64,000 nt of DNA from assembly GCA_963812015.1 (NCBI GenBank), contig CAWETI010000002.1, positions 480,001 through 544,000 of the forward strand, written 5' to 3'. Below, piece by piece: positions 54,509-59,109 of the stretch; position 1 is the first letter of the stretch; each line of letters opens with the position of its first letter. The notes under the pieces are model-generated. The model saw only the letters and a program-made list of their open reading frames with translations. It ran no database searches and was not told where the DNA came from. This stretch comes from an uncultured delta proteobacterium (GTDB lineage: Bacteria > Desulfobacterota > Desulfobaccia > Desulfobaccales > 0-14-0-80-60-11). The position numbers and the translations under genes were made by a program.

Positions 54509-55672
54509 CTACGCCGGCTTGGCCCAGATGCCGGGGATGGCCGTGCCGCAAAAAGCGCAGTTGCCGTCCTTGAGGCTGATTTCGCCGATCTTGTAGCCCT
54601 GGCGGGCGATGATCATTTTTCGGCAGTTATGGCAGAAAGTATTTTCGGCCTCGTGGCCGGGGATATTGCCGAGGTAGACATACTGGAGGCCCGCTTTCAG
54701 GGCCAGGTCCCGGGCCCGCTCCAAGGTGCTCACCGGGGTGGGATAATGATTGAGCATCTTGTAGAGGGGATAAAACCGGGAGAAATGCAGCGGCGTCAGG
54801 GGGCCCAGTTCATCCTTGATCCAGGCGCACATGCGGCTGAGTTGGTCCGGGGCATCGTTGAACTGGGGGATGATGAGGTTGACGATTTCCAGGTGGACCT
54901 TATGGCGGCGCAGGATTTTCAGGGTGTTGAGCACCGGTTCTAGCTCGCCCCCCACCAGATCACGGTAGAATTTGGCGTCAAAGGCCTTGAGATCGATGCA
55001 GGCGGCGTCCAGGAGCCCGGCCAGTTCTTCCAGGGGTGGGCCATTGACGTAGCCCGCCGAATGGCAGACGTTCAGGATGCCCGCGGCTTTGGCCAGGCGG
55101 CCCACATCCCGCATATACTCGTAAAAGATGATGGGCTCCACATAGGTGTGGGCAATGGAGGGGCAGCCGTTATCCCGGGCCGCGGCCACCACTTTGGCCG
55201 GGGGCAGATCGAAGTTGTAGGTCTTTTCCGGACGGGTCTGGGAGATTTCCCAATTCTGGCAGAACTTGCAGTGCAGGTTGCAGCCGGCGGTGGCGATGGA
55301 AAAGGAGGAAGTGCCGGGGAGGACGTGGAACAAGGGCTTTTTTTCGATGGGGTCCAGGTGGACGGCGCAAGGGTTGCCGTACACCAGACTGTAATATTTG
55401 CCCTCCCGGTTCTCCCGGACGCCGCATTCCCCCCGGTCTCCGGGCATGACCTCGCAGTTCCTGGGGCAGAGCTGGCACTGCACCAGGCCCTGGTCCATTT
55501 GGCGGTAGAAGGCGGCCGGATGCGGCGCGATGAAGCCGTACTGCATCCTCTGGGCGCGGACCGGCGCCGGCCGGAGGGGAAGGGACAAGAGCGCCAGGGC
55601 CCCGGCGCTGCTCCGGATAAACGTCCGGCGGCTGCACCGCCAGTCACCTAAACCTTGCAACCCGGACTTCAT
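54509..55672 (-). CDS. AmmeMemoRadiSam-type radical SAM enzyme with twin-arginine-like leader
   Basis: CQLCPRNC, DPIEKKPL, GCNLHCKFCQNW; N-terminal SRRTFI plus hydrophobic stretch. Confidence 0.88.
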   Translation of the reverse strand: MKSGLQGLGDWRCSRRTFIRSSAGALALLSLPLRPAPVRAQRMQYGFIAPHPAAFYRQMDQGLVQCQLCPRNCEVMPGDRGECGVRENREGKYYSLVYGNPCAVHLDPIEKKPLFHVLPGTSSFSIATAGCNLHCKFCQNWEISQTRPEKTYNFDLPPAKVVAAARDNGCPSIAHTYVEPIIFYEYMRDVGRLAKAAGILNVCHSAGYVNGPPLEELAGLLDAACIDLKAFDAKFYRDLVGGELEPVLNTLKILRRHKVHLEIVNLIIPQFNDAPDQLSRMCAWIKDELGPLTPLHFSRFYPLYKMLNHYPTPVSTLERARDLALKAGLQYVYLGNIPGHEAENTFCHNCRKMIIARQGYKIGEISLKDGNCAFCGTAIPGIWAKPA

Positions 55673-55812
55673 TTGGCGTTGCCTGCCATGACCTGAGTGT
55701 CGGTTACGACGTGAACGGCTGCGGCGCCTTAGTGGATGGCATCAGGCCTGAGGCTGGGGCGGCCTAAACCTCGCACCACTAAGGCTGGATGCGGTCGGAG
55801 CGGTTGGGTCGA

Positions 55813-56097
55813 TCAGTCACCGTTGATGCGATTGCGCAGCACGCCGGAAGTTTTAAAGACCACTACCTTGCGGGCCCGGAGGATAAGGTTCTCCTTGGTT
55901 TGGGGGTTGCGTCCCCGGCGGGCGTTTTTTTGCCTGACCGAGAATTTTCCAAAGCCGCTGATGAGCAGGTCGTCTCCCTGGGCCAGGGACTCCTTCATAA
56001 TATCCAGGACCCGTTCCACCGTCGAACGTGATTCTTGCTTGCTCAAACCCACCTGCGTCTGTAAGCGGCTGATCAATTTTTCCTTGGTGAGGGCCAT
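55813..56097 (-). CDS. ihfA: integration host factor subunit alpha
   Basis: MALTK, ISGFGKF, RRGRNPQT. Confidence 0.88.
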   Translation of the reverse strand: MALTKEKLISRLQTQVGLSKQESRSTVERVLDIMKESLAQGDDLLISGFGKFSVRQKNARRGRNPQTKENLILRARKVVVFKTSGVLRNRINGD

Positions 56098-56185: not shown

Positions 56186-57073
56186 CTAGACGGGGGAGGC
56201 GGCGCGCTTGATTTTGACCGGTTTACGCGGTGGCCGGCGGATGCCAAAATCCAGGGCGCTGAAGTGGCAGGCGTCCACGCAGCGCAGGCACATGATGCAC
56301 TCCCGGCTGTCGAATTCCTGGTTGGGCACGACCCCGGTGGGACACTTGCGGGCGCAGGCCCCGCATTCCACGCAGTTGCCTTCGATGAACTCTAACTGCA
56401 CCAGGCTTATCCGGCTGAAGAGGCTGTAAAAGGCGCCCAGGGGGCAGATGGTCCGGCAAAAAAACCGGCTGATGAGCACGGCCGCGACGAGGATGAGGAT
56501 GAGGATGGCGAGCTTGTTCCAGAAGAAAAAGGTCACGGTGGCCCACAAGCCGGGTTTCAGCAAGAGGAGGGGCATGGCCCCCTCCAGGGTGCCGGCGGGA
56601 CAGATGAGCTTGCAGAACCAGGGGTGCCCCAACCCGGAGCTATCCACAAAAAAGACGGGCATGGCCACCACCAGCACCCCCAGCACCGCGTACTTCACCC
56701 AGCGCAGGGGTTTCCACAAGAAAAACTTCCGGGTGGGGATCTTGTGAAGCAGATCCTGGATGAACCCGAAAGGGCAGATCCAGCCGCAGGTCAACCGACC
56801 CACCACGGTGCCGATAAAGCCTACATAACCCAAGACGATGGCGCCAGTCAGGGGGAATCCCCCCGTATTGAACCGCAGGCTGGCCATGAAATTCTGGAAG
56901 GCCCCCACCGGACAGGATAGCAGAGCCCCGGGGCAGGAATAGCAGTTAAGGCCGGGATGACACACCGCCTTCAACGGCCCCTGATAGATAACCGAGCCGC
57001 CGAAGGGGAACAGCAGGTAAGCGTTAGTCCCAAAGGCGACCAGGGTCTGGACCAACCACCTGAGGCGGTTCAT
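56186..57073 (-). CDS. membrane 4Fe-4S binding protein (NapH/MauN-like)
   Basis: NCYSCP, CGWICPFG, CKLICPAG, CRTICPLG, two CxxCxxC ferredoxin motifs. Confidence 0.9.
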   Translation of the reverse strand: MNRLRWLVQTLVAFGTNAYLLFPFGGSVIYQGPLKAVCHPGLNCYSCPGALLSCPVGAFQNFMASLRFNTGGFPLTGAIVLGYVGFIGTVVGRLTCGWICPFGFIQDLLHKIPTRKFFLWKPLRWVKYAVLGVLVVAMPVFFVDSSGLGHPWFCKLICPAGTLEGAMPLLLLKPGLWATVTFFFWNKLAILILILVAAVLISRFFCRTICPLGAFYSLFSRISLVQLEFIEGNCVECGACARKCPTGVVPNQEFDSRECIMCLRCVDACHFSALDFGIRRPPRKPVKIKRAASPV

Positions 57074-57204
57074 CAACCGACTCCGATGCAAGACAGGCAG
57101 ATGGTAGTGCCCAGGTTGAGTAGATAGGTCAGGTCACCGGTGTTAACCCCCAGGATGAATAAGGCGGTAAAGAGAATGATAAGCCAAAAGGATTTCTTCG
57201 GCAT
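57073..57204 (-). CDS. 43-aa single-TM CxxC peptide (Cys form), CD1871A-like
   Basis: MPKKSFWLIILFTALFILGVNTGDLTYLLNLGTTICLSCIGVG; GGGAGG RBS; TGATG overlap with the 4Fe-4S gene. Confidence 0.85.
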   Translation of the reverse strand: MPKKSFWLIILFTALFILGVNTGDLTYLLNLGTTICLSCIGVG

Positions 57205-57224
57205 AAACAACCTCCCAGTGGAAA

Positions 57225-57323
57225 TGGCCCCTGATAAATCGCCGCGCCGCCGAAGGGAAACAGGACTTTGGCGTTGGCACCCAACGCCATCAGGGGTTGG
57301 ATGAGTGACCAGAGCCTGGCCAT
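57225..57323 (-). pseudogene. truncated duplicate of the first ~33 codons of the 4Fe-4S protein gene
   Basis: MARLWSLIQPLMALGANAKVLFPFGGAAIYQGP vs MNRLRWLVQTLVAFGTNAYLLFPFGGSVIYQGP. Confidence 0.8.
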
Positions 57324-57337
57324 CACCCCACCCCGAT
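57289..57337 (-). promoter_or_regulatory. candidate bacterial SECIS hairpin
   Basis: ATCGGGGTGGGGTGATGGCCA-GGCTC-TGGTCACTCATCCAACCCCTGAT; G-led apical loop about 30 nt after the UGA. Confidence 0.6.
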
Positions 57338-57454
57338 ACAGGATAGTCAGATAGTGTTTCCCAGATTCATCAGGTATCCTAATTCACCACTGTTGACCCC
57401 GATAACAAATAAGATGGTGAAGATGATGATGAGCCACAAGGCCTTTTTGGGCAT
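57323..57454 (-). CDS. 43-aa single-TM UxxC peptide, probable selenoprotein
   Basis: MPKKALWLIIIFTILFVIGVNSGELGYLMNLGNTI(TGA)LSCIGVG; TGA at 57347-57349 aligns with Cys36 of the paralog; GGGAGG RBS. Confidence 0.8.
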
Positions 57455-57584
57455 GTTCCTACCTCCCGCCGGTTCAGGTTCACCATGGCAGGGTGATTGA
57501 TCGATCCCCTCATCTAGAGCTAATCACTATTATATCCATGGCCAAGCTTCCGGGGAAAAAATTTTTCCGGGTGAAGACAATTTC

Positions 57585-57614: not shown

Positions 57615-57920
57615 AATATTATGGAAGATGAATATTTGAAGGAATGGTTGGAGAGAGCGGCCCGATGCCTCAAGGTGCTGGCCCACCCCACCCGCCTGTT
57701 GATCATCCATCTCCTGGGCGATGGCGAGCTATCGGTGCAGGAGCTGGAAAAGGCGGTGGGGGTCAGCCAATCCAGCGTGTCCCAGCACCTGGGCCTGCTC
57801 AGGGACAAGGAGATCCTGGAATCCCGGCGGGTGGCCCAGCAGGTGTTCTACCGGCTGCGGGATCCCCGAGTGCTGCAACTGACGGCCCTTACCCGGGAGC
57901 TGTTCTGCAAGGTAGGCTGA
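57612..57920 (+). CDS. ArsR/SmtB family regulator (BigR/SqrR-like Cys placement)
   Basis: LAHPTRLLII, SQSSVSQHL, QVFYRL; Cys in ARCLK and in C-terminal LFCK. Confidence 0.88.
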   Translation: MNIMEDEYLKEWLERAARCLKVLAHPTRLLIIHLLGDGELSVQELEKAVGVSQSSVSQHLGLLRDKEILESRRVAQQVFYRLRDPRVLQLTALTRELFCKVG

Positions 57921-58014
57921 GGCGAGGGCCGCGGCGCCGGGCAGGTTACACGGGGAACACTTTCCTGAAATTCCGCTGAGTGAATTTCAGGATAATCTTA
58001 AGGAGAAAACCATT

Positions 58015-58464
58015 ATGTCTGCCGCACCGCAAAAAGATAAGGCCGCGTTTATCTGCTCGAGAGACACGTTGGACGGCGCCTATCCGCCGCTTATTCTGGG
58101 CATCAATGCCGCCCGGGCCGGCATGGAATCCAAGGTGTTTTTCACCTTTATGGGCATCAACCTGGCCTGCAAAGGTGGCATTGAAAAGGCCAGGTTTATT
58201 CCGCCCGGAGTCATGGGGGCGGTGCCGGGGATGTCCGCAATTGCCACCGGCATGATGAAGAAGAAGATCGACAAGGCCCACATCCCCTCCCTGCCGGAAC
58301 TGATGGAGATGGCTCAACTGGAAGGCGTGGAGTTGATCGTCTGCAAGATGACCATCGATATGATGGAATTAAATGAAGACGACCTGGTGGAGGGTTCCGT
58401 GGTGTGGACGGCCGAGGAGTTTATCAAATTCGCTAAAGACTGCAAGATCTGCTTGTTTATCTAA
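58015..58464 (+). CDS. DsrE/DsrF/DrsH-like sulfur-relay protein
   Basis: AYPPLIL, FFTFMG, VCKMTIDMM. Confidence 0.85.
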   Translation: MSAAPQKDKAAFICSRDTLDGAYPPLILGINAARAGMESKVFFTFMGINLACKGGIEKARFIPPGVMGAVPGMSAIATGMMKKKIDKAHIPSLPELMEMAQLEGVELIVCKMTIDMMELNEDDLVEGSVVWTAEEFIKFAKDCKICLFI

Positions 58465-58587
58465 GAGAACGCTCTGAGGTCAGGGCACCCCGGAGGGGAG
58501 ATTGAGGGGAGGGCGGGAAACATGGTAAAAAATTGCTCGGCCCGCCCCACGATGCCTGCTGTAGAGTTCTCAAGTCAGGAGGCGCGC

Positions 58588-59109
58588 ATGGGCAAGGCGG
58601 CGTTAATCGTGGCGGACATGCTCAATGATTTTCTGGACCCCCAGGGAGCCCTGTATGTGGGGCCCCAGGCCCGGGAGATCATCCCCTTTGTGGCGCAGAA
58701 GATCGCCGAGTTCCGGGCGCAGGAAGGGGTGGTGATCTTTGTCTGCGACGCCCACGCCCCCGATGACCGGGAATTCAGATACTTCCCGGCCCACGCGGTC
58801 AAGGGGAGCTGGGGGGGCGAAATCATCCCCGAGCTGACTCCTGGACCCGGCGACCACCGGGTGGAAAAGACCCGGTACAGCGCCTTTGCTCACACCAACC
58901 TGGAGGCTATTCTCCAACGGGAGCGGGTGGAGGCGGTGCACGTGGTGGGGGTGATGACCTCCATCTGCGTCATGGAGACGGTCAAGGAACTCTTCGACCG
59001 GGATCTACCGGCCCTGGTGTACCAACAAGGGGTGGCGGACTCGGACCCCGAGGCCCACGCCTTTGCCCTGAAACAGATGCCGCGGGTCTTTGGCGCGAAG
59101 GTGGTGTAG
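58588..59109 (+). CDS. isochorismatase/nicotinamidase-family cysteine hydrolase
   Basis: DMLNDF, DAH, KTRYSAF, GVMTSICV. Confidence 0.9.
   Translation: MGKAALIVADMLNDFLDPQGALYVGPQAREIIPFVAQKIAEFRAQEGVVIFVCDAHAPDDREFRYFPAHAVKGSWGGEIIPELTPGPGDHRVEKTRYSAFAHTNLEAILQRERVEAVHVVGVMTSICVMETVKELFDRDLPALVYQQGVADSDPEAHAFALKQMPRVFGAKVV

Follow-up and report, generated by a model that had tools for sequence, protein, structure and literature searches.

A 43-codon gene with an in-frame TGA, found in the window (the whole 64,000-nucleotide stretch of DNA analyzed here), on balance probably encodes a genuine selenoprotein, a membrane peptide that has one helix, a UxxC motif and a putative Fe-S protein partner; its UGA would be decoded through a remote SECIS, hairpin HP2, together with a long stem, HP1. 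A wider reading, in which we place slightly less than even confidence, is that such membrane micro-selenoproteins are widespread and uncatalogued; that their Desulfobaccales branch would use a remote SECIS about 65 nt downstream, brought in by HP1 looping; and that the Fe-S gene would be coupled to selenium, a captured Cys cassette, gained, lost and regained by recombination, uncoupling it. The initial annotation had described a selenocysteine/cysteine pair of peptides and did not mention what is more unusual here, namely, a Sec form found family-wide and a proposed remote SECIS.

Tandem layout and decoding of the UGA

The two minus-strand peptide genes, each 132 bp long, occupy 57454-57323 and 57204-57073, with a spacing of exactly 250 bp; our re-reading agreed with the initial annotation on this point. 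At 43 codons, both fall below the 60-aa default of the ORF listing. The features of the region are as follows.

57621-57920, plus strand: divergent ArsR/SmtB regulator gene, best sub-family match BigR (below cut-off), from profile searches; putative regulator of the operon
57529-57534, minus strand: TATAAT, seen by eye; candidate -10 box of the operon
57462-57467, minus strand: GGGAGG ribosome-binding site of the Sec gene (sequence)
57323-57454, minus strand: Sec-type peptide gene, 43 codons, UxxC, in-frame TGA at 57349-57347 (sequence, relatives, dN/dS about 0.13)
57289-57337, minus strand: HP1, a long stem starting 10 nt past the UGA that buries the stop and the next ATG and has a variable tip; proposed spacer-looping stem (folding)
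57270-57288, minus strand: HP2, a 7-bp stem with a GGUGC loop 65 nt past the UGA; proposed SelB-binding SECIS (folding, conservation)
57225-57323, minus strand: remnant that duplicates codons 1 to 33 of the 4Fe-4S gene and holds the HP1 3′ arm and HP2 (alignment)
57211-57216, minus strand: GGGAGG ribosome-binding site of the Cys gene, just past the repeat junction (sequence)
57073-57204, minus strand: Cys-type twin peptide gene, 43 codons, CxxC, TGC at 57099-57097 (sequence)
56186-57073, minus strand: gene for a 295-aa membrane polyferredoxin, NapH/YccM-like, with Fer4_5, two [4Fe-4S] motifs and 18 conserved Cys (profile searches)

The upstream peptide ends in ...LGNTI-TGA-LSCIGVG* and the downstream peptide in ...LGTTICLSCIGVG*. 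Past the TGA or TGC codon, the seven residues are identical in the twins and six of the seven codons differ synonymously, ATC being common to both, just as had been pointed out before. Each twin has its GGGAGG site 7 or 6 nt ahead of its own ATG and a TGATG stop/start overlap at its 3′ end. Both motifs had been reported, with the overlap leading into the next ORF; the motifs stand, but the ORF entered from the upstream peptide is a second copy of the first 33 Fe-S codons and therefore not a separate gene. The order is thus Sec peptide, Fe-S 5′ remnant, Cys peptide and full Fe-S gene, with a 250-bp repeat unit made up of ribosome-binding site, peptide and 5′ end of the Fe-S gene. The remnant shares 64% amino-acid identity with the 5′ end of the Fe-S gene, and its frame continues out of register to 57129 in this genome. 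The idea that this out-of-frame ORF over the Cys-gene start is a conserved switch was rejected, since start and frame are kept in only 4 of 21 remnants. The promoter scan did not call the TATAAT box at 57529-57534; on visual inspection, many relatives from the family also show such a box ahead of the peptide.

A contig from an independent study covers the whole tandem with 21 differences, none of them listed at the TGA (57347-57349). Because of this contig, and because the same TGA is present in 16 of the 17 genus genomes that have the locus, the tandem with its TGA is neither a chance occurrence nor an assembly error. Contigs from RNA runs of relatives touch both peptide genes and are uninformative on transcription, strand and level. 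Among the 18 genus genomes searched, the 17 with the locus divide into 7 with the tandem, 9 with a single UGA gene and 1 with a single Cys gene, and the TGA is kept in 17 of 17 U-type copies. A single Cys gene was found in all 19 other genomes of the family and in 12 of 14 genomes of the order (13 matched, 1 not fetched). In one relative (G016), a 1.7-kb contig (C55, locus L038) holds a second operon with a single UGA gene of a sister lineage, possibly through bin contamination or transfer.

The genome contains the machinery for selenocysteine insertion, with scores over cut-off for selA (608 bits), selB (368), selD (373) and tRNA-Sec (74.7). The selD gene itself carries a TGA. The selC gene lies at the end of contig C4 (C4:18351-18444) and overlaps the start of C2, the window's own contig, by 67 nt (C2:1-67), so that the two contigs join. 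The selA, selB, selC and selD genes that the initial annotation proposed looking for are therefore all present, and the UGA/Cys pairs that it expected among relatives occur both within the genus and across phyla. Many other genes in this genome have an in-frame TGA, in families that we take to be Fdh, HdrA, MvhD and CCG-domain proteins; further candidates with an in-frame TGA, presumably thioredoxin-like UxxC, rhodanese-like, LULAxC-type and CLEYPU proteins, lie at G000 C2:1411986(-), C3:372923(-), C3:239560(-) and C2:1035484(-).

Selection acts on the peptide through and past the UGA: dN/dS is 0.13 to 0.14 for UGA copies and 0.13 for single Cys genes. The locus thereby combines what is looked for in a bacterial selenoprotein, namely, a UGA aligned with the conserved Cys of homologs, selA to selD, and purifying selection on both sides of the UGA. 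Together with the conserved RNA structure 3′ of the UGA (below), the machinery and the UGA/Cys pairs strongly support the earlier reading of this codon as selenocysteine.

Two other readings of the UGA were weighed. A decayed gene fragment directly follows the upstream copy, as might be expected if that copy were a pseudogene or gave a 35-residue truncated product ending at the UGA. However, its dN/dS of 0.13 equals that of single-copy Cys genes, the residues past the UGA are conserved, the UGA copy is the sole copy in 9 genus genomes, and the same UGA is found in many phyla. This possibility is largely refuted, and we give it almost no weight. Alternatively, the UGA might be decoded as cysteine (by a SelC*/tRNA-ReC system) or as tryptophan. 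The accessible portion of PMC13582414 does describe tRNA-ReC-like genes in some Desulfobacterota. Against such decoding, the genome has one selB and one tRNA-Sec, no second selB and no CysRS* was seen in it, its second cysS-like gene is a cysteine synthase-CysRS fusion, both tRNA-Cys genes appear ordinary (the tRNA search being judged at its default threshold), and UGA serves as the normal stop of both peptide genes. We regard cysteine or tryptophan decoding as very improbable. The fusion gene (L353; G000:C2:172199-174508, minus strand) encodes a 770-aa cysteine synthase plus cysteinyl-tRNA synthetase; the genome has an ordinary cysS as well.

RNA structure downstream of the UGA

In the consensus bacterial SECIS, the apical loop lies 16 to 37 nt from the UGA (PMC13188914, section 5, in its accessible portion). 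UGA-type peptides of other lineages follow this pattern, their SECIS being built from the last codons of the peptide and the stop, with a GG loop at about +18. Among the matches listed, a standard GG-loop hairpin at +17 to +24 was found by a strict rule in 66 of 81 other-lineage peptides, most of the remaining 15 nearly fitting by eye, and in 0 of 15 Desulfobaccales-type UGA peptides. In the window, the 80 nt from the UGA, which include HP1 and the directly abutting HP2, fold with a z score of -4.0, versus -1.0 for the Cys counterpart.

HP2 was present in all 47 distinct UGA-type sequences of the lineage, with its loop 58 to 66 nt past the UGA. The loop begins with GG in 46 of the 47; its sequence is GGUGC in 18, GGUAC in 18 and GGGAC in 8, besides three others. 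With its 7-bp stem and GG-starting pentaloop, HP2 resembles the other SECIS elements of this genome, which have GG pentaloops (GGACU, GGUCU, GGUCA and others) at 18 to 23 nt. It departs from the consensus in distance and in its place past the stop codon and a long stem, within the following gene or what remains of it. The literature search, in the accessible portions of its sources, found no described remote bacterial SECIS.

The pairing of both stems is conserved. Among 37 distinct rows, HP2 pairing reaches 100% of cells, 2 of the 7 pairs showing two-sided changes, and HP1 pairs in 92.9% and 91.4% of cells. Two-sided changes occurred at 5 pairs of the combined structure versus 1.8 in shuffles; the rows are related, so that these shuffle counts are not probabilities. 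Slid controls paired in 26 to 55% of cells, versus 95% for the HP1-HP2 structure, and a separate run came out similarly. In the 21 remnants, HP2 departs from the majority sequence at 4.3% of positions versus 26% over the next 36 nt. Comparison of UGA-type L294 with the Cys-type relatives G035 and G025 showed a nearly identical HP1, with two substitutions that break HP2 in the Cys forms. Of 31 Cys-type relatives from beyond the genus, two (G028 and G036) have an HP2-like stem, which also occurs in the revertant G006 and behind two Cys twins (L328 and L335); all HP2 bearers derive from about one origin, and the counts are therefore not independent. The G-free HP1 tip of G006 was considered as a mark of SECIS loss and rejected, because the UGA-type L326 has the same loop. 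The element had no match in Rfam at E values up to 1, and a covariance model of it recovered only the pair present in this genome, at 92.8 and 43.5 bits, and one match at chance level. In locus L019 (genome G003), the Fe-S gene has an internal duplication covering a portion of its 5′ end, and the freed copy shows the HP2 loop change of remnants.

These patterns suggest that HP2 is probably a remote SECIS that the HP1 stem brings close to the UGA. With HP1 folded as modeled, the path from the UGA to the HP2 loop would be about 9 plus 7 nt, near the family's usual 18. Engineered 3′-UTR SECIS constructs have been reported in E. coli.

A conventional arrangement was also considered, in which the peptide is a real selenoprotein but SelB would dock on the HP1 tip, some 30 nt past the UGA, and HP2 would serve mRNA stability, pausing or HP1 folding. 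The tip in the window (GGCUC at 30 nt) satisfies the 16-to-37-nt rule given in PMC13188914 (section 5, accessible portion), a G stands at loop position 1 or 2 in 30 of the 47 UGA-type sequences, and the pairing of HP1 is conserved as well. The early G is missing, however, from the other 17, among them entire sister lineages whose tips are A/U-rich; remnants show a freely shrinking tip; and the Cys relatives G025 and G035 retain HP1 with HP2 broken. SelB binding at HP1 is thus an unlikely reading, and HP2 remains our preferred candidate for the SECIS.

The Cys twin and the history of the tandem

The initial annotation proposed that the operon keeps the Cys form as a back-up for use without selenium. 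In M. maripaludis JJ, Cys isoforms of selenoproteins have been considered possible substitutes (PMC2933860, accessible portion). The present locus is similar in that Sec and Cys versions of one protein occur in one genome and the Cys isoform is intact here; it differs in that the two lie head to tail in one operon, 250 bp apart, with the Cys copy under relaxed selection and often lost. Tandems made up 18 of 37 metagenome matches. Among 21 distinct tandem lineages, the twin keeps an open frame and a ribosome-binding site in all 21; 17 twins are intact, 3 have lost one Cys and with it the CxxC, and the remaining one is severely degenerate. In the 19 pairs compared, dN/dS was 0.13 (0.07 to 0.21) for Sec genes and 0.31 (0.21 to 0.43) for Cys genes, these being pairwise counts that are not independent; for 15 intact Cys twins it was 0.25 (95% interval, 0.16 to 0.37). 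One subclade deleted the Cys twin and retains the Sec form alone, 9 genus genomes being Sec only, and the twin appears from sequence comparison to have been regained at least once, in L335. The back-up idea is therefore borne out in part. Purifying selection on the Cys copy speaks for it, but the relaxation, the loss of CxxC in 3 of 21 twins and the deletion in a subclade indicate that the twin would be a partial back-up, maintained but dispensable.

The twin may also matter for the Fe-S gene. In folding, the unpaired fraction of the Fe-S start region was 0.15 in single-U units versus 0.32 to 0.33 in Cys units. Since HP1 buries the Fe-S start codon, we propose that in single-Sec operons the Fe-S gene would need read-through of the UGA. 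A Cys twin would supply both a selenium-independent peptide and a selenium-independent Fe-S start, which would be useful and still dispensable.

The Sec gene itself appears to have a single origin. In a tree of the Fe-S core, all UGA-type Desulfobaccales fall inside a starred clade of 31 rows (95/93), and the 15 Cys rows sampled outside it, with a Cys outgroup, argue for one gain of Sec. We infer one gain from Cys and later reversions in G006, in G025/G035 and in G027; replacement of Sec by Cys has been called rare (PMC1794560, accessible portion). The possibility that Sec arose inside the duplicate is ruled out by sister lineages that have a single Sec gene and HP2. We propose a single origin of Sec from Cys, at the root of a clade inside the family, and a replacement of the usual SECIS by a hairpin formed from the A-L-G-T-N-A codons of the Fe-S gene; the peptide's stop overlaps the next ATG, which would leave no room for the usual element and would explain why the Fe-S hairpin took over. 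In the genus ancestor, a Cys cassette (ribosome-binding site, Cys peptide and Fe-S 5′ end) would then have joined the operon behind the Sec gene, recombination with a Cys-type relative being a likelier route than in-place duplication, and the old Fe-S 5′ end would have persisted as a noncoding SECIS carrier.

The junction is the same in all 7 tandem genomes. By their housekeeping genes (8,232 nt), the single-UGA subclade nests within the tandem genomes, and monophyly of the tandem genomes was rejected (p-AU 0.0006; 0.032 for codon positions 1 and 2); on 4,788 nt it was not rejected (P = 0.081). The nesting and the rejection together imply that the Cys twin was deleted once. In a tree of the repeat units, the Sec unit falls with its sister Sec lineages (98/95 for the nearest one) and the Cys unit with Cys-only genera (94/91, unstarred). 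Duplication in place was not rejected (p-AU 0.063; 0.43 with fewer rows), and the unit tree may be biased by SECIS constraints. In L335, the upstream unit is about identical to the single-UGA L331, and a Cys gene stands between two nearly identical copies of the Fe-S 5′ end, which looks like a recent capture of a Cys cassette by recombination. In a further tandem (L327), the Sec unit is of the type found in the single-Sec subclade and the Cys twin has lost the first of its two Cys, another sign that operon types have recombined.

These observations bear on an alternative that keeps the same recoding and takes the Cys twin to be an in-place duplicate that reverted to Cys and now acts mainly as a leader for translational coupling of the Fe-S gene. 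The exact tandem with its one common junction would fit, as would the twins of G007 and G015, which keep HP2 with one mismatch, and the test that leaves in-place duplication standing. All 21 twins also keep the ribosome-binding site, open frame and stop/start overlap even without CxxC, deletions being in frame only. On the other hand, 17 of 21 twins are intact CxxC peptides (dN/dS of 0.25, computed on 15), the best unit tree places the twins with Cys-type outgroup genera, and in L335 the cassette was inserted in a single-Sec background. We consider the leader reading rather unlikely as a whole, though a serious competitor. For the origin of the Cys cassette taken by itself, we lean toward lateral capture, with duplication in place the less favored course.

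Family, Fe-S partner and possible function

The peptide profile matched 103 of 401 genomes of the phylum. A single TGA was present in 27 matched rows outside the genus, at the first Cys in 20 of the 20 fetched. A UGA-specific pattern searched over species genomes gave at least 119 loci, at least 96 of them UGA-type membrane peptides, under at least 17 phylum labels, some of which are loose MAG labels. Among the matches listed, an Fe-S gene lies within 1.2 kb of 78 of the 96 UGA-type membrane peptides, and selA was found in 46 of 50 tested genomes with such a peptide. Cultured species of Clostridium and Johnsonella are among the bearers. When longer fused forms were searched for, there were 4 matches of 77 to 207 aa.

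The initial annotation had likened the peptides to CD1871A-family CXXC proteins (NF040920). NF040920 was the best match for both twins, which share its trait of a short hydrophobic protein with a C-terminal CxxC-I-G-x-G, but they scored 21.3 and 18.0 bits against a cut-off of 32; they are distant homologs and not members of that family, so that the label holds for them as a resemblance. It fits some of their kin better, since 4 of 8 tested UGA-type homologs from other lineages pass the cut-off. Like NF040920 proteins, the twins are membrane peptides of about 40 aa ending in C-x-x-C-I-G-x-G, encoded beside a 4Fe-4S binding protein; unlike the twins' description here, the NF040920 model name makes no mention of Sec. 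Neither peptide had a Pfam match. The family is absent from the accessible portion of the 119-family selenoprotein table in a 2026 review (PMC13188914), which includes families from Haft and Tolstoy 2025, and from the text and supplement of PMC13326102. NF040920 was not found in the accessible portions of bioRxiv 2022.07.06.499078, PMC12013277 or PMC13745706, and the name CD1871A was not met in the literature searched. The Sec form may already be familiar to the NCBI curators of NF040920. Judged by sequence, the UGA-type peptides are probably an uncatalogued selenoprotein family present in many phyla. KCU-star, UXX-star and SaoC (PMC13188914, Table 1, accessible portion) are likewise small, have Sec near the C terminus and are easily overlooked by annotation; they are other families, whereas the window peptide is a membrane-anchored UxxC protein.

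An AlphaFold model of the Cys-type peptide (pLDDT 75) has helices at residues 3 to 22 and 25 to 40. The basic N terminus of this predicted two-helix peptide suggests that the U/CxxC motif would face outward. The Fe-S protein (AlphaFold pLDDT 83) has 8 of its 18 conserved Cys in the two ferredoxin motifs and 10 elsewhere, one of the 10 being only 58% conserved. As a matter of arithmetic only, these 10 and the peptide's two make 12, or three four-ligand sites. The protein resembles the NapH/MauN/YccM polyferredoxins (TIGR02163, PF12801) in its transmembrane helices, CxxxCP motifs and two C-terminal [4Fe-4S] motifs; it differs in its TIGR02163 score, 75.7 bits against a cut-off of 213, and in having ten conserved Cys elsewhere than in the ferredoxin domain. 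That domain alone resembles solved structures, being the sole part matched by Foldseek and VIA (best Z 6.7), a result with no bearing on the novelty of the membrane-part fold.

Among 66 neighbors scanned of 96 collected, 13 were TlpA/redoxin-like, 1 DsbC-like, 3 CcsA, 7 multiheme cytochrome c and 2 SelA. In L132, L237 and L262, the peptide and Fe-S genes are directly followed by selA. The operon in the window has neither a thioredoxin nor a cytochrome gene next to it. Genes of the CcdA/DsbD type are present in this genome; they were found in 20 of 36 genomes with the peptide versus 17 of 20 without it, a weak comparison in which kin are not independent and not all of the 36 are verified. Our best guess at the function, for which we claim somewhat less than an even chance, is a reductant path like that of DsbD/CcdA: the peptide and Fe-S protein would hand electrons on from ferredoxin clusters in the cytoplasm to thioredoxins outside it that are exported, and the U/CxxC, placed at the outer face, would act as a redox pair or a cluster ligand. 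The likeness to DsbD/CcdA (PF02683) is by proposed role only, homologous modules lying beside TlpA-like thioredoxins, CcsA and multiheme cytochromes; there is no sequence match, and the pair would use Fe-S clusters and a separate U/CxxC peptide.

An ArsR/SmtB-type gene also lies upstream of the operon in many relatives. In the window, the plus-strand genes at 57621-59109 encode the ArsR/SmtB (BigR-like) regulator, a DsrE2-like sulfur carrier and an isochorismatase-family protein, and they may tie the operon to sulfur or persulfide stress. Downstream of the operon, at 54509-56097 on the minus strand, are an IHF-alpha-like gene and an AmmeMemoRadiSam radical SAM gene with a Tat-like signal.

By the accepted rule, bacterial SECIS elements function only right behind the UGA, which limits both selenoprotein prediction and engineering; in BSepDB, about 13% of entries have no canonical SECIS (PMC13326102, accessible portion). 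The present locus offers a short natural element that probably breaks this distance rule, with nearly isogenic UGA and Cys controls that put the question within reach of a simple reporter. A looped-out spacer, if it works, could free the codons after Sec in engineered proteins. The peptides would add a selenoprotein family that spans many phyla, cultured species among them, and in which the gain of Sec, its reversion and the exchange of a Cys cassette would be visible at a fine evolutionary scale.
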